A stretch of DNA of 64,000 nucleotides from a virus (lineage: Duplodnaviria > Heunggongvirae > Uroviricota > Caudoviricetes), in IMG/VR virus record IMGVR_UViG_2718218135_000001, positions 49,251 to 113,250 of that record. The stretch is one strand, 5' to 3'. The notes beneath the pieces are model-generated. The model saw nothing but the letters and a program-made list of their open reading frames with translations, searched no databases and had not been told where the DNA came from. A program made the translations under genes and the position numbers. Within the stretch, counting starts at the first letter, position 1. Each line of letters starts with the position of its first letter. This document shows, in pieces, positions 18,257-63,991 of the stretch.

Positions 18257-18278
18257 GTGTGGGCAGGGACGCCCACAC
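18257..18278 (+). other. GC-rich hairpin in 5' leader of tail fibre gene
   Basis: GTGTGGGC-AGGGAC-GCCCACAC perfect inverted repeat, no U-tract, immediately followed by AAGGAG RBS. Confidence 0.45.
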
Positions 18279-18298
18279 TTCAAGGAGTGAAAAAGAAC

Positions 18299-21200
18299 AT
18301 GTGGTACAGGGAAGGCACTGTTACATTTACAAAAGGAAGCGACACAATATCAGGCATCGGAACACGTTGGAATTTGACCGAAAACGGCGTGTTACCGGGC
18401 ATGATTGTCATTGGTCCTGACAATAAGTTGTATGAGGTCAAGCGCGTAACCAGTGATAAGGTCATTGTTCTCTCAGAACCTTATACCGGCGAAACTCAAT
18501 CTAAAGTTCCGTGCCGAATCATTACGACCTATGAAGGCGACTTAACTCAGTTTAGTGCGCGCTTTACTGCACTAATGTCGCGTATGTCGGCTGATTCCAA
18601 GTCCATGCGCAGTTGGTTGACCGCTCTGGATGATGTGACAATCGAGCGTGAAGACGGTACAGAAGTGACCGTTAAGCCGCTAATGCAGATCGTCAACGAG
18701 CATAACGAAAACGTTGAGTGGTATAAAAATAACACCGATGCGATTGAGGCCGCTGGAGACAAAGCTCGGGAGGCGGCGGCCAGTGCTGTCGCTGCGGCAG
18801 AAAGTGCCAACACTGCTGTAGAAAAAGCCTCTCAGGCATCTCAAAGTGCATCCGCTGCGGTATCTTCACAAAGTGCGGCGAGTGAGAGTGCAGCTGCTGC
18901 GGAAAAATCTGAAACAAACGCAGAAGCGGCAAAAGAAGCGGCAGCAGAATCAGCATCTGTGGCGTCGACTAAAGCATCGGAGGCAGCCACATCAGCGTCC
19001 AGTGCCTCTGCATCTAAGGATGCGGCTAAATTATCAGAGACTAACGCTTCATCGAGTGCAAACGCGGCAGCATCATCAGCTACAGAAGCTGCAAATTCAT
19101 GTAAGGCAGCAAAAGCATCAGAGACAAACGCAAAAGCGTCTGAAGCTGCTGCCGAACAGAGTGCATTGTCTGCAAACAGTTCGAAATCTGCGGCAGAAAC
19201 GTCAGCGAGCGCGGCCTCAGTAAGCGCGGATAGTGCTTCATCAAGTGCAACGTCGGCAGAAAAGTCTGCGGAAAGCGCTTCGTTATCTGCGGCAAATGCC
19301 ACCGCTAAAGCGACAGAGGCGACGAAACAGGCAACAGCTGCGGAAAAGTCAGCAGAGGCGGCAAAATCTTCTGAAACCAATGCAAAGACTTCAGAAGACA
19401 ATGCCGCTGCTTCTAAGGAGACAGCAGCCGAATCTGCAAGCTCTGCCTCTGTTTCAGCTTCCTCGGCGTCATCTTCAAAAGATGAGGCCGCTCGCCAGGC
19501 GTCAGCGGCAGCAGAGAGTGCGACAACGGCATCAACGAAGGCGACGGAAGCGGCAGACAGTGCGACGGAGGCTGCGCAGAGCAAAAATGCGGCAGAATCC
19601 GCGGCAACACGCTCTGAGACAGCGGCAAAACGAGCTGAGGATATTGCATCCGCCGTGGCGCTTGAGGATGCGAGCACGACGAAAAAGGGGGTAGTACAGC
19701 TCAGCAGTGCGACCAACAGCACGTCTGAAACGCTGGCGGCAACGCCAAAAGCCGTTAAGGCCGCGTATGACCTGGCTAACGGGAAATACACCGCACAGGA
19801 TGCAACGACAGCACAGAAAGGGATAATCCAGCTAAGCAGCGCGACCAACAGCACGTCTGAAACGCTTGCCGCGACACCAAAGGCAGTAAAAGCAGCCAAT
19901 GACAATGCTGAGAAACGTCTGCAGAAAGATCAGAACGGTGCGGATATCCCTGGCAAAGATACCTTTACGAAAAATATTGGTGCCTGCCGTGCCTTCGGTG
20001 GGTCAGTAAGCACAACAACAGGAAACTGGACGACTGCACAGTTTATCGAGTGGCTGGATTCTCAGGGAGCATTTAACCATCCATACTGGATGTGCAAGGG
20101 TTCCTGGTCTTATGGCAATAATAAAATCATTACTGATACTGACTGCGGTAATATTCATCTCGCCGGAGCTGTCATTGAAGTAATGGGGATAAAGTCAGCG
20201 ATGACGATCCGCATTACCACACCGACCACCTCCACTGGTGGTGGAACAACTAACGCCCAGTTTACCTATATTAATCACGGAACAGATTATTCACCTGGCT
20301 GGCGAAGGGACTATAACTCCAGAAATAAGCCAACGGCATCAGAGATCGGGGCGTTACCGTCAGGTGGAACAGCAGTATCATCAGTTAATCTGGCTTCAAA
20401 AGGTCGGGTAACCGCGCTGACAGACAATACGCAGGGGGCAGCAGGTCTTGAGTTATACGAGGTGTATAACAACGGATATCCAACAGCGTATGGAAATATC
20501 ATTCACCTGAAAGGGATGACAGCCGTTGGCGAAGGTGAGTTACTCATCGGCTGGAGTGGTACAAGCGGTGCTCATGCTCCGGCATTTATTCGTTCACGAC
20601 GGGATACGACCGACGCAAACTGGTCGCCGTGGGCGCAGCTTTACACCTCGGCTCATCCTCCTGCAGAGTTTTATCCAGTCGGTGCACCAATCCCGTGGCC
20701 ATCAGATACCGTTCCGTCTGGCTATGCCCTGATGCAGGGGCAGACTTTTGACAAATCTGCATACCCGAAACTTGCAGTTGCTTATCCGTCAGGCGTGATC
20801 CCTGATATGCGTGGCTGGACGATTAAGGGCAAGCCCGCCAGTGGTCGGGCCGTATTATCTCAGGAACAGGACGGCATTAAATCGCACACCCACAGCGCCA
20901 GCGCATCCAGTACGGATTTGGGGACGAAAACCACATCGTCGTTTGATTACGGAACCAAATCCACGAATAACACCGGGGCGCATACCCATAGTATTAGCGG
21001 GACCGCAAATAGTGCCGGTGCGCACCAACACAAGAGTTCCGGTGCATTTGGTGGCACGAACACGAGCATTTTCCCTAATGGTTATACCGCGATTTCAAAT
21101 CTAAGCGCGGGGATTATGAGCACAACAAGCGGTAGTGGCCAGACTCGTAATGCAGGGAAGACATCATCAGATGGTGCTCATACCCACTCGCTGTCCGGCA

Positions 21201-21364
21201 CAGCTGCATCTGCAGGTGCACACGCACATACTGTCGGTATTGGTGCTCATACGCACTCGGTTGCGATTGGCTCACATGGACACACCATCACCGTTAACGC
21301 TGCTGGTAACGCGGAAAACACCGTCAAAAACATCGCATTTAACTATATTGTGAGGCTTGCATAA
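18299..21364 (+). CDS. side tail fibre protein
   Basis: Long Ala/Ser/Glu-rich low-complexity stalk, two tandem about 39-aa repeats ([23 protein letters not shown]), His-rich GAHTHS C-terminal repeats and terminal [20 protein letters not shown]. Confidence 0.7.
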
Positions 21365-21945
21365 TGGCATTCAGAATGAGTGAACAACCACGGACCATAA
21401 AAATTTATAATCTGCTGTCCGGAACTAATGAATTTATTGGTGAAGGTGATGCATATATTCCGCCTCATACAGGTCTGCCAGCAAACAGTACCGATATTGC
21501 ACCGCCAGATATTCCGGCAGGCTTCGTGGCTGTTTTCAACAGTGATGAGGCATCGTGGCATCTCGTTGAAGATCATCGGGGAAAAACCGTCTATGACGTG
21601 GCTTCCGGCGACGCGTTATTTATTTCTGAACTCGGTCCGTTACCGGAAAATGTTACCTGGTTATCACCGGATGGGGAATATCAGAAGTGGGACGGCACAT
21701 CCTGGGAGAAGGATGAGGAAACAGAAAAATTGTTTCAGGTACGGGAAGCGGAAGAAACAAAAAAAAGTCTGATGCAGGTAGCCAGCGAGCACATTGCGCC
21801 ACTTCAGGATGCTGTAGATTTGGAGATTGCAACGGAGGAAGAAGCATCGTTGCTGACTGCATGGAAGAAGTATAGAGTTTTATTGAACCGCATTGACACA
21901 TCAACGGCACCGGATATTGACTGGCCAACAATACCAGCAGAGTAA
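21364..21945 (+). CDS. tail fibre assembly protein (Tfa-like)
   Basis: 193-aa ORF translationally coupled (TAATG) to fibre gene; N-terminal region resembles Tfa-type chaperones. Confidence 0.55.
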
Positions 21946-21990
21946 GGGGCAGATTATATCTGCATTATTAACAACGATTAGTTTGCAAGA

Positions 21991-22017
21991 TATATAGTAG
22001 GTAAGTACATACCTACT
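21991..22017. promoter_or_regulatory. conserved intergenic motif A copy (TATATAGTAGGTAAGTACATACCTACT)
   Basis: AGTAGGTA / TACCTACT 8-bp inverted arms; upstream of lysis cassette. Confidence 0.5.
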
Positions 22018-22078
22018 GCAAATGGTTAAAATATGATATAAACACGCCATCCCGATTTGACTTTTCATGGAGGAAAAC

Positions 22079-22402
22079 ATGTCGAACGAGATGGCGGGAG
22101 TCACAACTGAACAGGTTGAGCGCATCGTCTCAATCGTTGCTCGGGAAGTCGTAGGCAAATTAGGTAAAGAAATACGCGAGGAAATTGGTCAGGAGGTCAA
22201 TGACCAGCTCAAAACCTACTTTGGCGATATGACGCCCGCACAACACAGCATTCAGCACTCCAATCTGGACAAACTTCTTAACCGGCTCGACACCATCTCC
22301 AGTGGGTTCTTTGGCGGCATTGTTTCGAAACTAACGTCGTTCATTATTACCGTACTGCTTTTAGGATTGGCCGCGTATGGCGTAAAAAATGGATTGCAAT
22401 AA
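22079..22402 (+). CDS. putative holin-like membrane protein
   Basis: GGAGG RBS; single C-terminal transmembrane segment (LTSFIITVLLLGLAAYGV); first gene of lysis-region operon. Confidence 0.3.
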   Translation: MSNEMAGVTTEQVERIVSIVAREVVGKLGKEIREEIGQEVNDQLKTYFGDMTPAQHSIQHSNLDKLLNRLDTISSGFFGGIVSKLTSFIITVLLLGLAAYGVKNGLQ

Positions 22403-22415
22403 CAGGAGATCAAGG

Positions 22416-23108
22416 ATGAAAACTCCGAGAGGCATTCGTAATAACAACCCCGGTAATCTTGATAAAGGAGCGCCGTGGCAGGGCTTAGTCAACAACTCTT
22501 CAGAACCGCGCTTCTGCACGTTTAAAGACCCCGTGTGGGGGATTCGGGCATTGGCAGTGACACTCATTACTTACCACGACAAGCGCCGCGCAAAAGATGG
22601 CTCCAGCATTGATACGATCCGCGAAGTCATCGAACGCTGGGCGCCTCCACATGAGAACAACACTTTGGCTTATGTGAACGAGGTATCCAAAGCCGTTGGA
22701 GTAGCACCAGATATGATTATCGATCTGCATGACTACGAGACCTTAAGACCGCTGGTAGAGGCGATCATTAGACATGAAAATGGCCGAGGTCCGCTGAAAA
22801 CCCCCAATAGCTGGTATACACCAGAACTTATCGAAGAAGGGCTGCGACGTGCCGGCATTGTCAAACCGGTAAAGGCTGTAAAAGCCGTTCCTGTAACAAA
22901 AGAAACCACAGGTGCTACAGTCACTGCAGGTATTGGCCTTGCACAAATTGCTGACGTTATGCCTCAAGTTTCTGCCGCAATGGATAAAGCGCAAGGCAAT
23001 ATCTCCAGTGGAGATACGGTACGCATCATCTTTGGCGTAGCTACCATTCTTGTGGCAGCATTCATTGCCTGGTCCCAGGTTCGCAAGCACCAGAAAGGAT
23101 TAGTATAA
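22416..23108 (+). CDS. putative endolysin / cell-wall hydrolase (family not recognised)
   Basis: Position between holin-like gene and spanins; conserved-looking GIRNNNPGN motif; C-terminal hydrophobic segment; CAGGAG RBS. Confidence 0.3.
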   Translation: MKTPRGIRNNNPGNLDKGAPWQGLVNNSSEPRFCTFKDPVWGIRALAVTLITYHDKRRAKDGSSIDTIREVIERWAPPHENNTLAYVNEVSKAVGVAPDMIIDLHDYETLRPLVEAIIRHENGRGPLKTPNSWYTPELIEEGLRRAGIVKPVKAVKAVPVTKETTGATVTAGIGLAQIADVMPQVSAAMDKAQGNISSGDTVRIIFGVATILVAAFIAWSQVRKHQKGLV

Positions 23109-23110
23109 GT

Positions 23111-23362
23111 ATGTTCGACGGCCTGTTGTTCAAAATGAAATCCGCTTTGTTCACTCTGGCCGCCGTCATTCTAGTCCTTGTCGGCGCATACTCCTATGGC
23201 GGGTATATGGCCAGACGCAGTATGGAAGAGAAAGAACGGCGGGAAGATAACAAGCGTCTTCAAAGCACAGTGGAAGTGGTGAATGAGACGAACAGTGAAA
23301 TACGTCAGAAAGATGCTTCTGCCATTCATCGTGAGCTGCATGATAAGTGGGTGCGTAATTAA
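23111..23362 (+). CDS. i-spanin (Rz-like)
   Basis: N-terminal TM helix then charged coiled-coil region; lipoprotein ORF embedded in +1 frame. Confidence 0.5.
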   Translation: MFDGLLFKMKSALFTLAAVILVLVGAYSYGGYMARRSMEEKERREDNKRLQSTVEVVNETNSEIRQKDASAIHRELHDKWVRN

Positions 23363-23498
23363 GCCACAGACCACCAGCGTGTTGTTCTGCGATGGCGCTG
23401 AACCTATTTATATCAGCAATGACGATGTAATGACCGAAGAAACCGAACGCCAAATCCTTTTTCACAATACGATGGGAGAGAGAGTTTGCGGTTGGTGA
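23283..23498 (+). CDS. o-spanin (Rz1-like outer-membrane lipoprotein)
   Basis: Lipobox ISGC in signal peptide; starts inside i-spanin gene in alternate frame (true start may be the internal Met at 23313). Confidence 0.5.
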   Translation: MRRTVKYVRKMLLPFIVSCMISGCVIKPQTTSVLFCDGAEPIYISNDDVMTEETERQILFHNTMGERVCGW

Positions 23499-23530
23499 TG
23501 TCGAAGTTCCCCTCAAATGAGGGGGACACA

Positions 23531-24052
23531 TTATTCTTCGAACAATTTTTCGATAGATTTTGTTGGATAGAACAAAGAACGATCGTTGTTACCAACCAGC
23601 TGGATAAAGCCCAAACTTTTATAAAACGCCCTAGCTTTATCGTTCAACGCCTCAACGAAAAGCCCATGAATGCCTACCGCAAGAGATGCATTGTACACAA
23701 CACGCATTGCGTGAGTTACAAGCATTGAGCCAAACCCCTGACCTTGAAGAGATTTGTCCAAAGCCAGTCTGCCTAAAGTGATACTTGGGACATTCCGATA
23801 AGGCACTTTCTTTTGCTGACTCTTTGAAGGTAAGGTTTCTTTCTCAAAGCAGCTGCCTGACAAAGTGTAATAACCTAATACCTTTGGTATTTCTTCTTTA
23901 GTGCAAAGCACATAAGCGCGAAGAATTTTTCCTTCATGCTGTCTTTTTAAGTGGTTGGTCAAAAATGCGTTTAGTGACTCTTCGCCGCAATCAAAACCGT
24001 TTAGATCATAATCTTTCTCTCCAGAGAAAATCTCGATCGTCGTATTGCTCAC
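23531..24052 (-). CDS. GNAT-family acetyltransferase toxin (TacT/ItaT-like)
   Basis: GNAT motifs (QGQGFGSMLV); GTG start 7 nt after upstream DUF1778-type ORF with GGAG RBS. Confidence 0.65.
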   Translation of the reverse strand: MSNTTIEIFSGEKDYDLNGFDCGEESLNAFLTNHLKRQHEGKILRAYVLCTKEEIPKVLGYYTLSGSCFEKETLPSKSQQKKVPYRNVPSITLGRLALDKSLQGQGFGSMLVTHAMRVVYNASLAVGIHGLFVEALNDKARAFYKSLGFIQLVGNNDRSLFYPTKSIEKLFEE

Positions 24053-24059
24053 GAGTAAA

Positions 24060-24329
24060 TTACTCCATGCTTTTCAGACGATTGGCAGCTCGTTTCAGCT
24101 TGTCGTTCGGTGCCGGAGGATTGCTTATAGCATCCATAACCAGATTCCAGGACTCTTCACTTAGAACCAGTCTACGGTGTTGCTCTATCACCTTCACGGC
24201 ACGTTCGGATGCACTGCTAACCATGAACTGGGTAATGCTCTGGTTAGACATTGCGGCAGCTTCCTCGATGATGCTTTTATCGTCATCGGTTAATCTCAAA
24301 TCGATGCGCTGCTTTTTCAGTGCGGACAT
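24060..24329 (-). CDS. DUF1778-type (RHH) antitoxin
   Basis: 89-aa protein MSALKKQRIDLRLTDDDKSIIEEAA... typical of GNAT-toxin partners; upstream of and co-directional with toxin. Confidence 0.65.
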   Translation of the reverse strand: MSALKKQRIDLRLTDDDKSIIEEAAAMSNQSITQFMVSSASERAVKVIEQHRRLVLSEESWNLVMDAISNPPAPNDKLKRAANRLKSME

Positions 24330-25725: not shown

Positions 25726-26493
25726 TTATGCCGCGCTAACACTATGTTCATTCCTAACCACCCCAACCTTCACAAAAGGGCTGCCGTAGCTTGGTGGCTT
25801 CTTGATTAATTTGCCTACATACAGTTTTCTAATATGCTCATCGGCTATTCTGCCAACAAATTCATAACGTTTTGTGTCGGGGCCAAGAGCTATATCCCTT
25901 GTAAAGTACTGCTGAGAACCGGCTTTGACCCAGCATTCAATCTGATAAACTTCCATTATCAGGCCCCCATATGTAGCGTAGGCATATTTGAGATTCTCGT
26001 CTCTTGGAACCTTTGCCCATACGCCACGCGTAGCTTCATATAATGCCAGAGCGGACATTCCTGACTTGTAGGTGCTGTTTAGCAGGAAGGCAAGACCGGC
26101 GTGCTCAGGAGCAATTTCAGTTTCCTCTTGCAGCACTAAGTGATGGTAGGCGTCCAGTGATATTCTGCCCATCATGGAACCACTTCCTCGTACCTTATTC
26201 GTAAGCTCTCCGACACCCATAAGGTCGATGCATGTCGCCTCAACAAGTTTGGCTGTGGTTTCATCCATACCATGACGAAGAATATCTATGCCTAATTTTT
26301 TATTAGCCAAAAGTTCTTTGATCCGCATGGATTTGGGAGAGTCATCGGGATACTTGATGTGATCGAGACAACGAGTCGATTTGCCTTTTCCTATGTAAAA
26401 CGGTCTTTTCATCTTGTCTTCTGTATCATAGAGACAGTAAACATAGTATTTAGCCTTATCCAATGATCTCGCGTATACCGATAAATCGTCCAT
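25726..26493 (-). CDS. GIY-YIG domain protein (free-standing nuclease candidate)
   Basis: N-terminal YYVYCLYDTEDKMKRPFYIGKGKSTR resembles GIY-YIG motif; about 150-aa C-terminal domain of unknown type. Confidence 0.45.
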   Translation of the reverse strand: MDDLSVYARSLDKAKYYVYCLYDTEDKMKRPFYIGKGKSTRCLDHIKYPDDSPKSMRIKELLANKKLGIDILRHGMDETTAKLVEATCIDLMGVGELTNKVRGSGSMMGRISLDAYHHLVLQEETEIAPEHAGLAFLLNSTYKSGMSALALYEATRGVWAKVPRDENLKYAYATYGGLIMEVYQIECWVKAGSQQYFTRDIALGPDTKRYEFVGRIADEHIRKLYVGKLIKKPPSYGSPFVKVGVVRNEHSVSAA

Positions 26494-43128: not shown

Positions 43129-44232
43129 ATGAAAAACACTTTTGATAAAGCACGCGCAGCAGAAAACACCTCTAGAGAAGCCATCGAGTATCTCGAACGC
43201 GCTTCCGGTTTGTCAGCAGTGTCGACCACCAATTTCGACGGTGACATGTCGTTTTCTTCCGCATTCATGTTATTCACTCGCTTATCTTTGCTGATAACGA
43301 GACGTCGACCTGAAATAGCTGTTCATTGTATTTTGATACATGTAATGCCGCATATCTGTGAAGTAAAAGTAAGTGACATTAGTAGGGTTTTAGTCAACCA
43401 GCTGGTGAACCCATTAATACTTGAGGGCAAGATCGTCCAGGGCAGACGTGTGTTCTCGCTGATGAAGCAGTTTCTCAGTTGGTGTGCATTTCAGGGCTTA
43501 ATTGATACATCCCCATTGAACGATATGTCGCTTAACAGAGTAGCCGGTGGCGCGAAGCCCACGCCGCGCGAGCGCAAACTGACCGACGCAGAGGTCTGGG
43601 TCTTTTGGAATGTATGGGACTACTTCAACGTATGTGAGGGTACAAAGTGGGCGGCCAGATTATGCCTTGTAGCGGCCAGACGACCAGATGAAGTGCTCCG
43701 AGCTAAAAGATCAGAATTCAACCTCGAATATAATTTATGGAATCAAGGAACGAGGAATAAATCGGCTCGCCAGCACTCGTTACCATTAAGCCCGCTAATG
43801 CGCAAATGTGTTGAGGAGCTGATCAAATACGGAAAAGGCAGCCAGTGGCTTGTTCCTTCAAACAAGAAACAGGGTGAGGATGTGCCAATGTCTAAGGTGG
43901 CCATATCACAGGCGTTGAGAAGGATTTTAGAACGTCCAGAGTTGATGGAGCTTGAGCCATTTACTCCCCGAGATTTGCGTCGTACTGCGCGTAGTTACTT
44001 CCCCGCGTTAGGCATAAGTCAGGAGGTATCCCGCAAAATTATGAACCACAGTCTTGAGGGGATAGATCGAGTATACGATCGACACGATTATATAGACGAG
44101 ATGCGAGACGCCTTAAACAGTTTTTCGGCGTACATCGCATCAATCGTAGAGAAACAGGATTTAGAGGAGATAGATCATAAGTTCAAGGGAGATCGACTCG
44201 CTACTGAGCTAATCCGTGTAAATTTCTCATAG
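43129..44232 (+). CDS. tyrosine recombinase / integrase
   Basis: C-terminal catalytic region RDLRRTARSYF ... MNHSLEGIDRVYDRHDY (R..H..R..Y pattern). Confidence 0.65.
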   Translation: MKNTFDKARAAENTSREAIEYLERASGLSAVSTTNFDGDMSFSSAFMLFTRLSLLITRRRPEIAVHCILIHVMPHICEVKVSDISRVLVNQLVNPLILEGKIVQGRRVFSLMKQFLSWCAFQGLIDTSPLNDMSLNRVAGGAKPTPRERKLTDAEVWVFWNVWDYFNVCEGTKWAARLCLVAARRPDEVLRAKRSEFNLEYNLWNQGTRNKSARQHSLPLSPLMRKCVEELIKYGKGSQWLVPSNKKQGEDVPMSKVAISQALRRILERPELMELEPFTPRDLRRTARSYFPALGISQEVSRKIMNHSLEGIDRVYDRHDYIDEMRDALNSFSAYIASIVEKQDLEEIDHKFKGDRLATELIRVNFS

Positions 44233-48937: not shown

Positions 48938-51900
48938 ATGAAGGCTCTGATGGTCAGAACTGACTTCTCCCTGGGAGAGTCAGCTCTAAAAGCAGAAAAC
49001 GCGGTGAAAATCGCGAGAGACGCTGGCTACACCGCTGTCATTTCCGCTGACAGCATGAACATTGCCAGTGTGATCCCCCTGCAGCGTGCCGCTGGCGACG
49101 ACATGGCGGTTATTTGTGGTGTTAAGCTGAATGTGGTCGACGATCCGACATACGAGCATCGCGCCCGCCTGGCGAAAGAGTCAGGAGGATGTATGGAATC
49201 ATTGGTGCGTGATCGAAGCTACTGCTTCACGGCACTGATAAAGAATGAGCAAGGTTATCGCGACGTGTGCGAACTGATGACCTTAGCCAACAAGCGCGAG
49301 CAATTCTACTTTGTTCCGCGTCTGGCACTTGACCAGCTGGCGGCCGCATATGCCAAAGGCAACATCATCCTGCTGACGTCCGACATTGGCAGTGTATTCC
49401 AGCGCCGGGACTTCGCAAAGATTATCGGGACGCTGGTGACAGCTGGAGGACGCGATAACTTCTACAGCGTGGTTTATCCGCACCCTACCCCATTCTACGA
49501 CCAGATTAACGTCCGGGCGATGAAAGTGGCGAGCGCACTGAAAATAGAGCCAGTGGCGTTCTATCCCGCTTATTACGAAGCGATCGACGACGCTGACATT
49601 AAAGACATTGCGCACATGGTTACGAACAACATCAAAATCGACCAGCCGCATCGTCTGCGCATCCCCCACCAGCGAGATAACGCTGTTAATGGTCGTCGCC
49701 ATCTCCTTGAAGCGCTGAAAGCCTTCTCCGTTCGCATGGGCGTACCGGTAACAGCTGCAATGGTCTCAACAACGCAGGACACCATTATTGAAGCCTGCAC
49801 ATGGCGCTGGCATGAACTGCCACCAGCACTGCCCAAGATGGCAGACGACGAGCCTGCAACGCTGATGAAGCTGGCTGTCGCGGGGCTACGCAAGCGTCTA
49901 ACTACTAAAGAGTTTGGCTACACACCACCGGCTTCTGAGCACCGAGTGTATGTTGAGCGACTGAAGTACGAAATGGACACACTGACCCGTCTGGGCTTCT
50001 GTGGCTACTTCCTGATGGTACGCGATCTGATGAATCACAGCCGTGAAACAGGAATACCGGTTGGGCCAGGTCGTGGTTCCTCTGCCGGTTCTCTGGTGGC
50101 GTGGTGCATAGGCATAACCAACGTCGATCCTATCCGTCACGGTCTTCTGTTTGAGCGTTTCATCAACCCTGAACGTCTTGACTTACCGGATGCGGATCTG
50201 GACTTCAGCCAGGCACGTCGTCATGAGGTGATCGAGTATCTGAATGAACACTATGGCGAAGATTACGTTGCCGGTATTCCAAACTTCACCTATCTGGGCG
50301 CCGCTTCTGCGCTGCGAGACACTGCGCGTATTTACGGTGTCGACGCTGCGGATATGTCGGTATCCAAAGAGTTCAAGAATCTGGAAGACGATAGCCTGTC
50401 TCTGGAAGAGCTGCGCGAGCAACTGGCCAGCCTGGACAAATACGCCACGAAAAACCCGGAAGCGTTCAAAGCGGCGTGTAAGCTGCAAAGCCTGATGCGT
50501 GGTTTTGGTCGTCACGCTGCGGGGATGATCGTCGCTGGCGTTCCACTGGTAGAGCGCACGCCCGTCGAGCTGCGTGGCAACGCTCGCTGTATTGCGTTCG
50601 ATAAACGTTACTGCGAGGCGATGGGGCTGATTAAGCTGGACGTTCTCGGTCTGGCAACGCTCGATCTGCTGGATAGCGCGAAACGCTACATCAAAGAGAG
50701 TACCGGGGAAGACATCAATCTCGATGCTATTCCACTGGACGATCGTAAGGTTCTGGATGGGTTCGCTGCAGGGTACACGCAGGGCGTATTCCAGCTGGAG
50801 TCCGGCCCCATGCGCAAGCTGCTTAAAGATCTGGGCGGTGGCATTGAGCCAATGAGCTTCAAAACCGTTGTCGCCACGACCGCACTCTTCCGACCTGGCC
50901 CGATCCAATCCGGCATGTTGGACGACTATGTCTCCGTGGCCAAAGGCTTCATGGCTCCACATTCAATTCATCCGCGTCTTGAGGAAGTCACCCGGGAGAC
51001 TAATGGTGTTTTGCTCTATCAGGAACAAATCATGCAAAGTTCCCGAGTACTTGCCGGGTTCTCTATGGCCGAAGCAGACGCTCTGCGTTCCGCTATCGGT
51101 AAAAAGAACATGGATAAGATGAAAGCGATCGGCAGCGATTTTGTAGAACGAGCACAAGCAGGCTGGGTGACACTGTCACTCAAAAATGGAGGTACTGTAG
51201 AGGTTCACAAACACGCAAAACTGGATTGCTCAGACGGTAAGCGTAGAAGCTACAGCGAGGCTATTAGTGACGGCATAGACTACGTGGAGATCGTCTCTGA
51301 ACAAGAAGGTCTCAGTAAGGAAAAAGCCCAAGAAATATGGGACGCCTTTGAGAAGTTCGGTGGATATGCCTTCAACAAATCACACAGTGTTGCTTATTCT
51401 TTAATCAGCTATCAGTCTATGTGGTTAAAGACACATTACCCTGCTGAGTTCTTCGCTGCTGCGCTCACCATTCTGGGCGAGGATAAGCACCAGGGGCTGG
51501 TTAAGGATGCGCTGACCTATGGCATTCGCGTATTGCCACCAGACGTTAACGTGTCATCTAACCGAATTGAGATCCGCACGCTGGAAGACGGCAGTCAGGT
51601 TCTGTATGCACCATTCTCTGCTGTGAAAGGCTGCTCTGAGAATGGTTGCCAGGCCATCATGAGAGCGCGTGAGAAAGTTGGCGGCAAATTCGAGTCACTT
51701 GAGCAATTTGAGGAAGCGGTCGAGAAGCGTGCATGTAACAGCCGGGTACGCGAATCACTGCAAAAAGTCGGTGCGTTCGCATCGATTGAGTCTGGCAGTC
51801 TGCCAGCGACAGATCCGGAACGGCTGCGCGACCAGGCAGAGTTGATGGGTAATCTGGTGATCGACGCTGTAAAAGCCTCTCGACCGTTCGAGATGAACCC

Positions 51901-58880: not shown

Positions 58881-59041
58881 CTTTATGGTGTCATAAACTT
58901 AAATCTAGCGCCGGGTAGAACAAGTTAATCGAACGATGTAGCGGCCATTTAGGCGTTACAGAAAGAACAGAATTTTAAATTTATAGTGAAGCCGTTGCAG
59001 CAACTTTGTGGGGTGCAACCAACACTGAACAGGAAAAGAAA

Positions 59042-61474
59042 ATGGATCATAGTGTACATAACAAGCTCATCTCATTTATATGGAACATTGCCGACGACTG
59101 TTTACGTGATGTGTACGTTCGCGGTAAGTACCGCGATGTGATTTTACCTATGGTGGTATTACGACGTTTAGATACGTTACTTGAACCCACCAAAGAAGCC
59201 GTGCTTGAAGAGGTCAAGTTCCAAAAAGAAGAGATGCAAGCCACGGAGCTTGATGATGAACCATTGAAGGCGGCTAGTGGTTATGTTTTTTACAATACAT
59301 CTAAATGGACCCTGAAATCCCTGTTCAACACCGCAACGAATAACCAACAGATATTACTCGCCAACTTTGAAGAGTACCTGCTTGGCTTTAGCGATAATGT
59401 TAAAGAAATCATTGAATGCTTTAACCTCAAGTCGCAAATTCGTCACATGGCCTCAAAGCAAGTCCTTCTTGATGTCGTCGAAAAGTTTGTTTCCCCTTAC
59501 ATCAACTTAACTCATGAAACGATCGAAGACCCAGATGGCAACAAGATGCCAGCCCTTACTAACCTGGGTATGGGGTACGTGTTCGAAGAGTTGATCCGTA
59601 AGTTCAACGAGGAGAATAACGAAGAAGCCGGTGAGCACTTTACACCTAGGGAAGTGATTGAGCTGATGACACACTTGGTTTTTGACCCAGTGAAAGAGCA
59701 GCTACCATTGACCATGACCGTTTACGACCCTGCGTGTGGTAGCGGTGGTATGCTCACTGAATCTCAAAACTTCATTGAAGAGAAATACCCGAACGACAGC
59801 CGAGATATTTACCTTTACGGCAAAGAGATCAATGACGAGACCTACGCGATTTGTAAATCGGACATGATGATCAAAGGTAACAACCCTGAGAACATCAAGG
59901 TAGGCTCAACCTTGTCTACCGACGAGTTTGCGGCTTCTCGCTTTGACTTTATGTTGTCTAACCCGCCATACGGTAAGAGTTGGGCGTCTGAACAGAAGTA
60001 CATTAAAGACGGCAGTGATGTGATTGACCCGCGTTTTAAGGTTAGCCTGAAAGACTATTGGGGAAATCTCGAAGTGGTGGATGCCACGCCACGTTCGAGT
60101 GATGGCCAGCTGCTTTTCTTAATGGAGATGGTCAACAAGATGAAAGATCCGAGCGTAAGTCCATTAGGCAGCCGGATTGCCTCTGTTCATAACGGCTCAT
60201 CGCTCTTTACCGGCGATGCGGGCGGTGGCGAAAGTAATATTCGTCGCTTCATCATTGAAAACGACATGCTAGATGCCATCGTTCAGTTACCTAATAACCT
60301 GTTCTATAACACTGGCATTACCACTTACATTTGGGTGTTGAACAACAATAAACCTGAGGCGCGTAAAGGTAAGGTGCAATTAATTGATGCCAGCTTGCTC
60401 TACCGTAAGTTGCGCAAGAACTTAGGTAACAAAAACTGCGAATTTGCGCCTGAGCACATCACGGAAATTACCGATACTTACCTCGCGTGTAAGGATGTTG
60501 AAAGAGCACTGGATGCAAACAATGATCCTGTTGGCATCGCCAGTAAGGTATTCAGCAATGACGATTTTGGCTACTACAAAGTCACTATAGAGCGCCCAGA
60601 TCGCCGCAAAGCCAAGTTTACTCAAGACGCAATAGCCCCACTGCGTTTTGATAAGCAACTTAGTGAAGTGATGGAGTACGTGTACGCAGAGCACGGCGAA
60701 CGTGTTTACGAAAAAACTGGCTACGGGTCAGATCAGAAAAAGAGCTTCTTAAAATCCATCGAGAAAGACATTCTTTCTTGGTGTGAAGATAACGACATCA
60801 GTCTCAATGCTAAGGCTAAGGCCAAACTGCTTGATGTGAAACACTGGCTGGCGCTAAAAGCATTGCTTGAAACTGCACAAACGCTGATGGCTGACATCGG
60901 TAGCATTGAATTTGATGACTTCAATAGCTTTAAAACCCAAGTTGATAAATCGCTAAAAGCCCATGCTATTAAGCTTTCAGCACCTGAGAAAAATGCCATT
61001 CTTCACGCGGTGAGCTGGTATGACGAAACCGCCAAGAAAGTGGTTAAAAAGGTAGTTAAATTAACGGGTGATAAATTAAACGACCTGCTGGAGCGCTATG
61101 AGTGTGAAGTCGCTGACTTGCCAGATTTTGGTTATTACCCCGTTCCTTCAGCAGAAGGCGGTAAAAAAGGCGAGTATATCACTTACGAGACCAATTCAGA
61201 CCTGCGAGATACAGAATCTGTTCCATTAAAGCAAAGCATTTACCAGTACTTCCTAGATGAAGTGAAGCCTCATGTCGATGAAGCATGGATAAACCTAGAT
61301 ACGGTAAAAATTGGCTATGAAATCAGCTTCAATAAGTATTTCTACCGTTATAAACCGCTGCGTAGTTTAGAAGAGGTCGCAACCGACATCATCAACCTAG
61401 AACAAAAAGCCGAAGGTCTCATTGCGCAGATATTGGGTGTTAAAGTGGCGGAAGTAAAAAAGGTTCAGGGGTAA
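59042..61474 (+). CDS. type I restriction-modification methyltransferase subunit (HsdM-like, long form)
   Basis: N6-adenine MTase motif IV NPPYG and motif I-like DPACGSGGML; followed by HsdS; ATG at 59042 preferred. Confidence 0.7.
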   Translation: MDHSVHNKLISFIWNIADDCLRDVYVRGKYRDVILPMVVLRRLDTLLEPTKEAVLEEVKFQKEEMQATELDDEPLKAASGYVFYNTSKWTLKSLFNTATNNQQILLANFEEYLLGFSDNVKEIIECFNLKSQIRHMASKQVLLDVVEKFVSPYINLTHETIEDPDGNKMPALTNLGMGYVFEELIRKFNEENNEEAGEHFTPREVIELMTHLVFDPVKEQLPLTMTVYDPACGSGGMLTESQNFIEEKYPNDSRDIYLYGKEINDETYAICKSDMMIKGNNPENIKVGSTLSTDEFAASRFDFMLSNPPYGKSWASEQKYIKDGSDVIDPRFKVSLKDYWGNLEVVDATPRSSDGQLLFLMEMVNKMKDPSVSPLGSRIASVHNGSSLFTGDAGGGESNIRRFIIENDMLDAIVQLPNNLFYNTGITTYIWVLNNNKPEARKGKVQLIDASLLYRKLRKNLGNKNCEFAPEHITEITDTYLACKDVERALDANNDPVGIASKVFSNDDFGYYKVTIERPDRRKAKFTQDAIAPLRFDKQLSEVMEYVYAEHGERVYEKTGYGSDQKKSFLKSIEKDILSWCEDNDISLNAKAKAKLLDVKHWLALKALLETAQTLMADIGSIEFDDFNSFKTQVDKSLKAHAIKLSAPEKNAILHAVSWYDETAKKVVKKVVKLTGDKLNDLLERYECEVADLPDFGYYPVPSAEGGKKGEYITYETNSDLRDTESVPLKQSIYQYFLDEVKPHVDEAWINLDTVKIGYEISFNKYFYRYKPLRSLEEVATDIINLEQKAEGLIAQILGVKVAEVKKVQG

Positions 61475-61480
61475 GTCGTT

Positions 61481-62818
61481 ATGATGAAGATTTCTGAAAT
61501 GCCGAAATATGACGATTATGTAGATTCTGGGGTTGAATGGTTGGGACGAGTTCCTTCTCATTGGCAGATTATAAGATTGAAAAATACGATCAATGGATGC
61601 GTCAATGGCTTATGGGGGGCTGATCCAAATGGTAAAGATGAATTGGTTGTAGTAAGAGTTTCGGATTTTGATGAGCAAAAATTGAATGTTTCTGATGAAA
61701 AACTTACTTATCGTTCCATACCTGAAAACGAACGGAAAAGTCGCCTATTGAAATTTGGTGATTTATTGATAGAAAAATCAGGTGGAGGCGATAAAACTTT
61801 AGTTGGTAGAGTTGTTTTGTTTGATAAAAGCTATACGGCAGTCACGTCAAACTTCGTCGCAAAAATGACTCCAAAAAATTGGGTAAACCACAGTTTTTTA
61901 AAGTATGTATTTTTTAGTTTATATAGTCGAGGTGTCAATTACGTATCTATTAAGCAAACAACAGGTATCCAAAACCTTGATGCGAATTCGTATTTAAATG
62001 AAGTTTTCTGTTTTCCTGATGAATTTGTTCAGGCAGAGGTCGCCAACTTTCTTGACAAGAAAACCGCTCTAATCGACGAAGCGATTTCGATCAAAGAGCA
62101 GCAAATTAGCCTGCTGAAAGAGCGTAAGCAGATCATCATCCAACAGGCGGTGACCCAAGGGCTTGACCCGAATGTGCCAATGAAAGACTCCGGTATGGAT
62201 TGGATTGGGAAGATTCCGCAACACTGGAAATTAAAGCCTAATAAGTGCCTTTTCAAGTTAAAAAAATCATTGGTAGGAAAAAGATCTGGAGACTATGAGC
62301 TTCTATCTCTAACCCTAAAAGGGATAATTAAACGAGATATGGATAACCCAGAGGGGAAATTTCCAGCTGAGTTTAATACGTACCAAGAAGTTAGTGTCGG
62401 TGACTTTGTATTCTGTTTATTCGATGTAGAGGAAACCCCTAGAACTGTTGGTCTTTCTAAATTTAACGGAATGATTACTGGGGCCTATACGGTTTTTGAA
62501 CTTGATGAGAGTGTTAGTAAGGAATTCCTTTATTATTTTTATTTAAATTTAGACTCAAGAAAAATGATGAGACCATTGTATAAGGGTCTAAGAAATACCA
62601 TCTCAAAAGAGACTTTTTTGAGCTTTAAGTCATTTATACCACCTTTGAAAGAGCAAGAAGAGATCGTTGATTTTATTGAATATGAGGTTAATAAGATAGA
62701 TCTCACTATAGATGGGATATCCGAACAAATTGATAAAATAAAGGAATATAAGTCTTGTCTAATAAATGGTTCGGTCACAGGTAAAATTAAAGTTACGTCA
62801 GAAATGGCTGAGCGATAG
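61481..62818 (+). CDS. type I restriction-modification specificity subunit (HsdS)
   Basis: Two target-recognition domains separated by conserved central helical spacer; AT-rich codon usage. Confidence 0.7.
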   Translation: MMKISEMPKYDDYVDSGVEWLGRVPSHWQIIRLKNTINGCVNGLWGADPNGKDELVVVRVSDFDEQKLNVSDEKLTYRSIPENERKSRLLKFGDLLIEKSGGGDKTLVGRVVLFDKSYTAVTSNFVAKMTPKNWVNHSFLKYVFFSLYSRGVNYVSIKQTTGIQNLDANSYLNEVFCFPDEFVQAEVANFLDKKTALIDEAISIKEQQISLLKERKQIIIQQAVTQGLDPNVPMKDSGMDWIGKIPQHWKLKPNKCLFKLKKSLVGKRSGDYELLSLTLKGIIKRDMDNPEGKFPAEFNTYQEVSVGDFVFCLFDVEETPRTVGLSKFNGMITGAYTVFELDESVSKEFLYYFYLNLDSRKMMRPLYKGLRNTISKETFLSFKSFIPPLKEQEEIVDFIEYEVNKIDLTIDGISEQIDKIKEYKSCLINGSVTGKIKVTSEMAER

Positions 62819-62827
62819 GACGCGAGT

Positions 62828-63991
62828 ATGTTCACGGTAAATCATCAGACCAATAGGATTAGTCCGGTTAAGACGAAGAAGTTCAGTGAGTTGGGCTTTA
62901 CTGAGCGCAAGCATCTTCAGGAGTGGTTGGCACACGAACCTTCCGCACTCGGTGAAGAGTTGTTGATTATTCAAAAAGAGTTCGATGGCTTTGATGACAC
63001 CCGTGAACGCTTAGATTTACTGGCACTGGATAAAGATGGCAACTTGGTCATTATTGAAAACAAGCTGGACGACAGTGGCCGCGATGTGGTGTGGCAGGCG
63101 CTTAAATATGCCTCTTACTGTGCCAGTTTAACCAAAGCGCAAATAGTTGAAATTTATCAGCAGTACTTAGACCGCTATGAGCCTGTCACAGGAGAGGTAG
63201 ACCTGTTAAATGCCCCTGCAAGTGCCTCAGCTAGAATATGTGAGTTTTTGGATGCGCCCGATCTGGATGAGTTAAAGCTCAACCTGGGTAACAGCCAGCG
63301 CATCATGTTAGTTGCGGCAAACTTTCGCAAAGAAGTGACCAGCACCGCGCTGTGGTTATTGGGTCAAGGAATTAGCATTGCCTGCTTCAAAATCACGCCT
63401 TATTCACTGGGTGAACAGCTACTGATTAATATTGACCAGATCATCCCAACGCCGGAAGCGAAAGAGTTGATGATCGGCATTAATGCCAAGGAAGCGGAAG
63501 AAAAAACCACCGAAGTGGTACTAAAAAACCGCCATACGGTGCGGCGCGAATACTGGGAGCGTGCCTTAGAGGCGTTTCAGAAAAGCGCTTGCCAACTCTA
63601 TAACAACATTAGCCCAAGCAATGATCATTGGTTATCAGCAGGCTCAGGGTTAAGTGGGTGTCCGTATAACCTGATATTTCTGCAAAAAGAGCTTCGAGTA
63701 GAGCTTTGTATCAGCCGTGGGGTTACCGAAGAGAATAAATACCTTTTTGACTTGTTGAGTCAGTCCAAACAGGACATTGAACATACTTTTGGTGCAGAAC
63801 TTGAGTGGATGAGGCTGGATGAGAAGAAATCTTGCCGTATTCAGTTTTCGACCAAAGCTGATGGGTTTAACAAAGATACGTGGCCCCAAGCGGTTGCGTG
63901 GCACTTAGAGCAGATGACAAAGTTAGAAAAAGCCTTAAAAGGACCGCTGCAAAAAGCGGCTGAGGCAATGAAACAGAAGAATTTTGATTAA
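62828..63991 (+). CDS. PD-(D/E)xK-like nuclease-domain protein associated with RM locus (DUF4268/NucS-like, tentative)
   Basis: N-terminal RERLDLLALDKDGNLVIIENKLDD fits D...ExK nuclease signature; immediately downstream of hsdS. Confidence 0.35.
   Translation: MFTVNHQTNRISPVKTKKFSELGFTERKHLQEWLAHEPSALGEELLIIQKEFDGFDDTRERLDLLALDKDGNLVIIENKLDDSGRDVVWQALKYASYCASLTKAQIVEIYQQYLDRYEPVTGEVDLLNAPASASARICEFLDAPDLDELKLNLGNSQRIMLVAANFRKEVTSTALWLLGQGISIACFKITPYSLGEQLLINIDQIIPTPEAKELMIGINAKEAEEKTTEVVLKNRHTVRREYWERALEAFQKSACQLYNNISPSNDHWLSAGSGLSGCPYNLIFLQKELRVELCISRGVTEENKYLFDLLSQSKQDIEHTFGAELEWMRLDEKKSCRIQFSTKADGFNKDTWPQAVAWHLEQMTKLEKALKGPLQKAAEAMKQKNFD

Follow-up and report, generated by a model that had tools for sequence, protein, structure and literature searches.

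A lysis cassette in an SSU5-like phage-plasmid

We analyzed a 64,000-nucleotide stretch of Caudoviricetes DNA (positions 49,251 to 113,250 of IMG/VR virus record IMGVR_UViG_2718218135_000001; hereafter the window), in which four open reading frames (ORFs) lie close together at 22079-23498, all on the + strand, with a hairpin just beyond them:

22079..22402, + strand: first cassette gene, in the holin position, 107 amino acids; phrog_5093 match and SSU5_026 orthologue
22416..23108, + strand: predicted Enc34/M4Lys-type endolysin, 230 amino acids; matches PDB 7q47_A and phrog_873
23111..23362, + strand: predicted i-spanin, Rz-like, 83 amino acids; matches phrog_1026, N-terminal membrane helix
23283..23498, + strand: predicted o-spanin, Rz1-like lipoprotein, 71 amino acids; matches phrog_1275, lipobox
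23506..23527, no strand assigned: GC-rich hairpin with a 9-bp stem (6 G-C), a consensus match from a terminator-like scan

Only 13 nt separate the first gene from the endolysin gene, and the i-spanin gene begins 2 nt past the endolysin stop. The original prediction, made from the letters of the window, had proposed a four-gene lysis cassette here, and the ORFs, the PHROG endolysin and Rz-like spanin matches, all far better than chance, and the annotation of phages SSU5 and Cyrano support that proposal. We consider it highly probable that the region is an intact late lysis cassette of an SSU5-like phage-plasmid, composed of an Enc34/M4Lys-type endolysin, spanins and the first gene.

To place the cassette, we compared it with phage and plasmid sequences. 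Window region 21300-23600 shows 80-83% DNA identity to phages Cyrano, CMS-2020a and SSU5, and region 21900-23600 is 99.8% identical to ~106-kb plasmids of E. fergusonii and E. coli. Of 5,426 complete E. coli genomes, 242 (~4%) carry the lysis cassette, on a plasmid in every case. Together, the identity to SSU5-like phages and the plasmid-only occurrence identify the host element, as judged by its sequence, as an SSU5-like temperate phage-plasmid of Escherichia. Synteny with Salmonella phage SSU5 extends over most of the window, covering head, tail, tail fibre, lysis, partition and replication genes, with cargo insertions between them. SSU5 gp26-gp30 and Cyrano CYRAN_22-25 are direct orthologues of the cassette in identical gene order, and in GenBank the same cassette genes of SSU5 and Cyrano are annotated Holin, Endolysin, Rz and Rz1. 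The endolysin class, with its structure and unusual architecture, has likewise been published, so that the first gene is the only part of the cassette not already explained.

On the E. coli plasmids that match 21900-23600, the RefSeq annotation made by the Prokaryotic Genome Annotation Pipeline names the cassette genes only 'membrane protein' or 'hypothetical protein' (the match covers three features so named, across hundreds of plasmids), an annotation gap despite the solved structure of the endolysin class. All four cassette genes could safely be named by annotation pipelines.

A predicted Enc34/M4Lys-type endolysin

The 230-amino acid protein is a clear predicted member of the Enc34/M4Lys class, in which a PHA02564 catalytic domain is followed by a C-terminal membrane domain. 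It matches the PHROG profile phrog_873 'endolysin' at 3.2e-86, and a phmmer search of the PDB returned 7q47_A ('Endolysin', 170 amino acids) with E=5.9e-56 over residues 3-151, as well as 9vvp_L, the N-terminus of a 1,295-amino acid phage protein, at 1e-20. Full-length identity is 90% to SSU5_027, 55% to the protein of the Chi-like phage iEPS5 and 56% to Enc34 ORF39 (BLASTP, residues 4-228). As the original prediction had stated, no motif of a standard lysozyme, amidase or peptidase family can be assigned to it: Pfam and NCBIfam searches of 22416-23108 returned nothing above threshold, which was also the case for the first gene and the o-spanin.

The endolysin gene is preceded by AGGAG 7 nt upstream of its start. 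Its catalytic domain occupies residues 1-150 (nt 22416-22865) and contains W75 (22638-22640, in ERWAPP), Y86 (22671-22673, in AY) and the proposed catalytic E121 (22776-22778, in RHENG). There follow a Lys/Val/Pro-rich linker (VKPVKAVKAVPVTKE) that is longer than that of Enc34, a proximal, weakly hydrophobic Gly/Ala/Thr-rich helix at ~165-189 (nt 22908-22982; Kyte-Doolittle (KD) ~1.0) and a strong membrane helix at 201-222 (nt 23016-23081; KD 2.15), after which the protein ends in the basic tail RKHQKGLV, predicted to be cytoplasmic. On the same scale, residues 1-160 hold no hydrophobic segment, hence no N-terminal signal or signal-anchor-release (SAR) domain. The C-terminal anchor, pointed out earlier as atypical, is a feature of the Enc34/M4Lys class. 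We aligned six sequences (the window, SSU5, Cyrano, a 66%-identical metagenomic relative, iEPS5 and Enc34) and found that PRGIRNNNPGN at residues 4-14, whose GIRNNNPGN core had been noticed as conserved-looking, is invariant across these homologues down to 58% identity, as are the E121, W75 and Y86 columns and much of the C-terminal module ('AQ..D ... SG..V.I.FG..T...W...KH..G'). Residue numbers in the Enc34 paper are offset by one from the genome-encoded ORF.

This type of endolysin was first noted in phage Siskin in 2019 (PMC6498227). M4Lys of the Chi-like Salmonella phage BSPM4, with which the iEPS5 protein has been grouped, was characterized biochemically in 2020 (Bai et al., PMC7143992), and the catalytic domain of Hafnia phage Enc34 ORF39 was solved in 2022 (PDB 7Q47; Cernooka et al., PMC8943055). 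Enc34 ORF39 carries a PHA02564 'virion protein' domain without recognizable likeness to standard endolysins; its all-helical fold resembles the alpha-lobe of lysozyme, Glu131 is proposed to be catalytic and Trp79 and Tyr95 to position the substrate, and toxicity is limited to the full-length protein, which includes a C-terminal two-helix membrane domain (PMC8943055). M4Lys cuts purified peptidoglycan as an N-acetylglucosaminidase and lyses E. coli on its own, which azide (Sec inhibition) does not block; removal of 13 C-terminal residues abolishes lysis, the membrane domain alone is only bacteriostatic, and the membrane module has a charged, holin-like C-terminal tail (PMC7143992). SSU5 is not mentioned in the main text of either experimental paper (PMC8943055, PMC7143992).

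The window endolysin resembles Enc34 ORF39 in its two-part architecture, its 56% identity, its retention of the Glu, Trp and Tyr residues and PRGIRNNNPGN, and its position between a small membrane protein and overlapped spanins that are themselves homologous. It differs in lacking two insertions of the Enc34 catalytic domain (PPKKNGVVENN and SPEDYD); moreover, Enc34 is a 60-kb Chi-like virulent siphovirus, whereas the element here is a ~106-kb phage-plasmid, and the upstream genes of the two are unrelated. M4Lys belongs to the same family, and the terminal part of the membrane module that it needs for lysis is kept here (W..RKH..G). By analogy with these homologues, the window protein would be a glycosidase acting on Gram-negative peptidoglycan, with an all-helical, lysozyme-like domain in which Glu121 would be catalytic and Trp75 and Tyr86 would position the substrate. 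A basic linker would join this domain to a membrane module made of the weak helix, the strong helix and the cytoplasmic basic tail. As extrapolated from M4Lys and Enc34 ORF39, the module would hold the enzyme at the inner membrane and would be both required and sufficient for access to the wall, without Sec and without a separate holin.

Two other groups of membrane-tethered endolysins invite comparison. SAR endolysins with their pinholins (P1 Lyz; phage 21 R21/S21) share the membrane tether, the dispensability of a large-hole holin and a weakly hydrophobic, Gly/Ala-rich helix. We rejected membership of the SAR class, in which the SAR domain is N-terminal and exported there by Sec, whereas the hydrophobic module here is C-terminal, there is no N-terminal signal and the homologue M4Lys is insensitive to Sec inhibition. 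LysAP of Acidovorax phage AP1 also requires a C-terminal membrane domain for localization and lysis and lies downstream of a ~111-amino acid, single-helix holin; it differs in its GH24 lysozyme catalytic domain, in the reported involvement of Sec and in its holin, which belongs to the holin 2_3 family and has a near-N-terminal helix (PMC8879335).

To explore how widely the domain occurs, we searched phage genomes by tblastn and found the catalytic domain in 810 of 50,697 records, including K1F-type gp16, PM2 P5, DMS3-like phages and the D6 tail injection transglycosylase. Some of these proteins raise the possibility that the 230-amino acid protein is a virion-associated entry lysin or a structural protein rather than a release endolysin: the catalytic family was formerly annotated 'virion protein V / structural protein P5' (PHA02564), and the same domain lies within K1F-type gp16, the D6 tail injection transglycosylase, tape-measure proteins and PM2 P5. 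However, the window protein stands outside such structural fusions, as a free-standing, membrane-anchored protein of 230 residues between a holin-position gene and spanins, and homologues of the same architecture lyse cells from within. Matches over most of the endolysin's length were found in only 182 records, and those listed are Chi-like phages and their relatives plus SSU5-like elements. We also looked for a competing endolysin on the element and found none: the RefSeq annotation of SSU5 has no endolysin besides SSU5_027, the window ORFs without an SSU5 counterpart (fimbrial cluster, transposase, tyrosine recombinase, GIY-YIG protein and type I restriction-modification genes) include none, and, in a plasmid with 99.8% identity over the cassette, the part beyond the window has no lysozyme-like annotation. 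A profile hidden Markov model of the endolysin, run over the window, matched only the 22416-23108 ORF, with no second Enc34-type domain, for example in the tape-measure protein. The original prediction had named a lack of muralytic activity and homology to a virion structural protein, combined with a conventional endolysin elsewhere, as the outcome that would overturn it; instead, the homologues at 55-56% identity are muralytic and the protein is the only endolysin we found. We therefore regard a virion role as very improbable.

A divergent homologue on a Logan contig (SRR30563942; our locus L013, 3368-4063) bears on the membrane module. This 231-amino acid protein, 41% identical to the window endolysin and placed between a relative of the first gene and a phrog_1026 i-spanin, lacks all three proposed residues ('RHENG' is replaced by 'VMYNG' and 'ERWAPP' by 'LDFCEY') and retains a nearly intact C-terminal membrane module. 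Retention of the module despite loss of the catalytic residues suggests that the module may have a function independent of catalysis.

An overlapped pair of predicted spanins

The last two genes are predicted to encode a two-component Rz/Rz1 pair of overlapped architecture. The i-spanin has an N-terminal membrane helix at ~6-30 (nt 23126-23200), a short, charged periplasmic helical domain and a KWVRN end. It matches phrog_1026 'Rz-like spanin' over its full length (4.2e-22) and shares 65% identity with SSU5_028 and 25% with Enc34 ORF40 (E=1e-3), which has the same length and architecture and a similar ...KW.R. C-terminal end. At 83 residues it is very short; Rz of phage lambda has 153. A TraQ match on the Rz helix in the Pfam/NCBIfam search was below threshold and was rejected as compositional.

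The o-spanin carries the lipobox I-S-G-C24 (nt 23343-23354) and a mature part of 48 amino acids with two further Cys residues; it matches phrog_1275 'Rz-like spanin' (2.9e-25) and is 74% identical to SSU5_029 and 40-43% identical to Enc34 ORF41 and iEPS5 Rz1 (E=2.6e-20 and 1.8e-17). Its gene, in another reading frame, shares its first 80 nt with the i-spanin gene and continues for 136 nt past the i-spanin stop. The spanin genes had been described earlier both as an overlapped pair, which is correct, and as a lipoprotein gene embedded in the i-spanin gene, which the 136-nt extension contradicts. Inner-membrane protein, lipoprotein and overlapping genes are shared with the P2 LysB/LysC-type and Chi-family spanins, and the o-spanin is homologous to the Chi/Enc34 family (PMC6139136). 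In the survey of Kongari et al. (PMC6139136), the SSU5 o-spanin falls into that family and the SSU5 i-spanin is a singleton, both among the overlapped pairs. Once the wall has been cut, the Rz-like inner-membrane protein and the Rz1-like outer-membrane lipoprotein would disrupt the outer membrane. Homology of both the spanins and the endolysin to Enc34 and iEPS5 indicates an endolysin-Rz-Rz1 block common to SSU5-like and Chi-like phages.

The first gene and its family

The first gene is preceded by GGAGG at 22069-22073, 5 nt upstream of the ATG at 22079; the in-frame ATG at 22067 is not preceded by a Shine-Dalgarno sequence. We considered a dual-start motif (ATGs at 22067, 22079 and 22091) and found it unconvincing, with a Shine-Dalgarno sequence only at 22079 and no basic residue between the Met codons. 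The product has an acidic, helical N-terminal region, the motif F48-G-D-M-T-P-A-Q-H56-S-I-Q-H60 (nt 22220-22258) and, as the original prediction had observed of this holin candidate, a C-terminal membrane helix, which forms its single hydrophobic segment (~77-102, nt 22307-22384; best 19-residue KD mean 2.11). Only five to eight residues follow the helix (YGVKNGLQ, net charge +1), and the charged domain is N-terminal. Because a signal sequence is missing and the helix is at the very C-terminal end, the N-terminus is predicted to be cytoplasmic. An AlphaFold2 model contains two long helices, 10-48 and 54-104 (mean predicted local distance difference test score 72.7, predicted template modelling score 0.31).

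The best PHROG match is phrog_5093, of unknown function (1.4e-66), and the protein is 92.5% identical to SSU5_026 'putative holin'. A SLATT_1 match on the membrane helix was below threshold and was rejected as compositional. The holin classes I-III were also rejected as a layout, as the one helix lies at the extreme C-terminus with no charged hydrophilic C-terminal domain. The first lysis gene of Siskin/Chi-type phages, proposed by the Siskin annotators as a possible 'class IV' holin (PMC6498227), is similar in position, in size (~110 amino acids, single-pass), in having one large, charged helical domain and in placing almost nothing across the membrane. It differs in that its membrane helix comes first and the charged domain second, and it shows no homology to the window protein (hhalign <1%); we therefore rejected identity with this 'lysis protein B', which has its helix at the opposite end. 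BSPM4 ORF_37, whose membrane helix is N-terminal and whose coiled region is C-terminal, is in the same way a mirror image of the window first gene.

In the phage collection, the first gene was found in 12 records, all SSU5-like, and a database of 5.8 billion proteins returned only close relatives, as full-length matches of at least 60% identity. An exhaustive profile search extended the family to 55 cluster representatives, 15 of them below 1e-10. Its members have 94-141 amino acids and share a charged, helical N-terminal region, an F-G-D-M-T-x-x-Q-H-x-x-Q-H motif and one C-terminal membrane helix. G49, H56 and H60 do not vary, and conservation is highest in the membrane helix and the stretch next to it. 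We found no published experiment on this family in the literature that we searched.

Gene neighborhoods of the first-gene family

To determine what accompanies the first gene elsewhere, we examined cassettes headed by its relatives (gp26-like genes), which came mainly from 10 exact-protein look-ups; a narrower alignment gave only 2 IMG/VR loci. In three lineages (the SSU5-like group, which includes the window and Cyrano, and loci L007 and L013), an Enc34-type membrane-anchored endolysin lies directly downstream, and no other small membrane protein precedes the i-spanin. In five cassettes the downstream endolysin is soluble, and after it comes a small protein that has one or two membrane helices. 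These endolysins are as follows:

L011/L012, L017 and L018: Peptidase_M15_3 endolysin
L021: Amidase_2 endolysin
L019: GH108+PG_binding_3 endolysin

At L014, L015 and L016, a small protein with two or three hydrophobic segments lies directly downstream of the gp26-like gene; at L014 this protein is a phrog_8226 holin and precedes a phrog_669 endolysin whose N-terminus carries a hydrophobic segment. Cassettes L010 and L020 are incomplete. Spanin-like genes follow in several of the gp26-headed cassettes.

Members of the family thus lie directly upstream of, or one gene from, at least five endolysin types (Enc34-type, Peptidase_M15_3, Amidase_2, GH108+PG_binding_3 and phrog_669), and this association firmly argues for the family as a lysis-cassette component. 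Alongside the gp26-like gene there is always another membrane element, which is either free-standing or fused onto the endolysin, a pattern that fits a holin-antiholin pair and is neutral as to which of the two forms the lesion. We asked whether the C-terminal module of the endolysin could be a fused copy of the free small membrane proteins and found no support for this, with hhalign probabilities <1% for all eight.

Among the free proteins, a small two-helix family with the motif RP[YF].T..V...[FY]N ... GP.N..I..WF.ER recurs just downstream of M15 or Amidase_2 endolysins in gp26-headed cassettes (L011:3791-4066, L017:3755-3973 and L021:3300-3557). Pfam gave no match to it and PHROG gave weak ones only (phrog_6637, unknown function); it is a candidate holin or antiholin partner.

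Holin or regulator

The first gene product would be anchored at its C-terminus, with a cytoplasmic N-terminus and with its G...H-x3-H motif on the cytoplasmic side, beside the membrane. It would most likely set the timing of lysis, either as a hole-forming or depolarizing holin or as a regulator of the endolysin's membrane module, and we give these two roles about equal weight. The name holin, a label taken from position alone, is plausible. If the first gene encodes a true holin, of a mirror-image single-helix class and needed by the endolysin, the enzyme would accumulate at the inner membrane, tethered and inactive, until gp26-like oligomers formed holes or depolarized the membrane at a set time in a pinholin-like manner; the tethered enzyme would thereby be released or activated, in functional analogy to a SAR endolysin and its pinholin. 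We regard this as a serious possibility that falls somewhat short of an even chance. It accounts for the tight packing of the gene (the 13-nt gap) just before the endolysin gene, where a holin is canonically found, for relatives that head cassettes with at least five endolysin types, a classic genomic signature of holins, and for the conservation of the membrane helix and its adjoining region above the rest of the protein; a SAR-like, pinholin-like model was also speculated on by the Enc34 authors (PMC8943055). However, all eight informative cassettes with another endolysin, or none nearby, also encode an additional small protein that has one to three hydrophobic segments, and one of these proteins matches holin phrog_8226. 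The first-gene family therefore need not be the hole-former. M4Lys, furthermore, lyses E. coli alone, and the non-homologous protein at the same position in Chi-like BSPM4 is non-toxic and slightly delays lysis (PMC7143992).

That behavior of the BSPM4 counterpart is what would be expected if the first gene were instead an antiholin-like timer or regulator and the C-terminal membrane module of the endolysin formed the lesion, making the enzyme in effect a holin-endolysin fusion; where relatives have soluble endolysins, this regulator would instead act together with a free-standing small holin. Such a role is likewise credible without reaching even likelihood. The complementary pattern of membrane proteins argues for it, since 3/3 Enc34-type lineages lack another small membrane protein and 8/8 other informative cassettes have one. 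So do the reports that full-length M4Lys and Enc34 ORF39 are toxic or lytic alone, with the membrane domain required (PMC7143992, PMC8943055), and that the membrane module has a holin-like charged C-terminal tail (PMC7143992). The L013 enzyme, with its module conserved in the absence of the Glu, Trp and Tyr residues, points the same way, and the invariant cytoplasmic G...H-x3-H is more suggestive of binding or sensing than of a part of a pore. By contrast, the contexts amount to a small sample (13 distinct cassettes, 11 of them informative) with crude membrane-helix calls, the endolysin module and the free small membrane proteins show no relationship (hhalign <1%), the M4Lys membrane domain alone is merely bacteriostatic (PMC7143992), and over-expression artefacts are possible.

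Several further points weigh against our reading of the cassette or of its first gene. The first gene shows no homology to any holin family (Pfam and NCBIfam below threshold; best PHROG match of unknown function), which counts in particular against a holin, and it lacks the long, charged C-terminal tail typical of holins. It is also unrelated to the first gene of the Chi/Enc34 phages (hhalign 0.1-0.2% against iEPS5 gp37 and Enc34 ORF38). A sigma-70 promoter scan upstream of 22079 gave no sigma-70-like site, and hydrophobic segments and membrane helices were called throughout by Kyte-Doolittle only, a crude method. The activity ascribed to the endolysin is extrapolated from homologues that are 55-56% identical; for these, the Enc34 authors state that no known translocation mechanism accounts for the enzyme crossing the membrane and that holin-independent lysis may be an over-expression artefact (PMC8943055).

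A wider proposal is that gp26-like proteins, marked by the C-terminal membrane anchor and the invariant cytoplasmic G...H-x3-H motif, form a new, widespread lysis-timing class that is always paired with a second membrane element: in most phages a free small holin and, in SSU5-like and some other phages, the C-terminal membrane module fused to an Enc34-type endolysin. We consider this less likely than not; if true, the cassette would amount to a 'holin-fused endolysin plus dedicated regulator' system and to a naturally occurring mirror image, without homology, of what Chi phages have. Both SSU5-like phage-plasmids and Chi-like phages carry the Enc34/M4Lys class; the two groups have the endolysin and spanins in common and differ in their upstream partners, which are unrelated and of mirror topology. 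Because the SSU5-type partner family also heads cassettes with ordinary soluble endolysins, these phages together offer a clean comparative system in which to separate hole formation from timing.

Flanking genes and cargo

Directly before the cassette lies a lambda-like gene for tail-fibre assembly. At this point SSU5 carries three additional genes, for an outer-membrane protein, a membrane protein and Cor, that are missing here. The tail-fibre gene (1,035 amino acids) and the tail-fibre assembly gene (21364-21945), at window 18257-21945, end in a lambda stf/tfa-like module: window 21300-21927 is ~92% identical to lambda at the DNA level, and the SSU5-type fibre tip is replaced. The appearance is that of a swapped host-range module that directly adjoins the cassette. 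The tail-fibre assembly gene is separated from the first lysis gene by a 133-nt gap, in which no sigma-70-like promoter was found and which holds a perfect inverted repeat with an 8-bp stem at 21996-22017 (AGTAGGTA...TACCTACT).

Downstream, and convergent with the cassette, lies a pair of genes at 23531-24329 (- strand) that encode a GNAT acetyltransferase toxin (173 amino acids) and, just upstream of it, an 89-amino acid ORF that is probably the antitoxin. Cyrano also has a GNAT toxin-antitoxin pair after its cassette, annotated as a KacT toxin and a putative antitoxin, whereas in SSU5 the position is taken by two hypothetical genes unrelated to the pair. The Cyrano annotation places the start of Rz1 further downstream. 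The hairpin at 23506-23527, between the cassette end and the convergent toxin gene, is probably a shared terminator, in a region where the count of terminator-like hairpins is not above the shuffled-sequence expectation.

Elsewhere in the window, we found cargo missing from SSU5, including a chaperone-usher fimbrial cluster with an adjoining transposase (31091-36856, - strand) and type I restriction-modification genes (59006-63991, + strand). In order of position, these features are:

25726-26493, - strand: GIY-YIG domain protein, not in SSU5
31091-32221, - strand: fimbrial subunit or adhesin, not in SSU5
32112-34604, - strand: usher, not in SSU5
34616-35350, - strand: PapD-like chaperone, not in SSU5
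35352-35900, - strand: 182-amino acid ORF of the fimbrial cluster, not in SSU5
36041-36856, - strand: rve-family transposase, not in SSU5
43129-44232, + strand: tyrosine recombinase with a Phage_integrase domain, not in SSU5
59006-61474, + strand: HsdM, not in SSU5
61481-62818, + strand: HsdS, not in SSU5
62828-63991, + strand: 387-amino acid ORF after HsdS, reaching the window end

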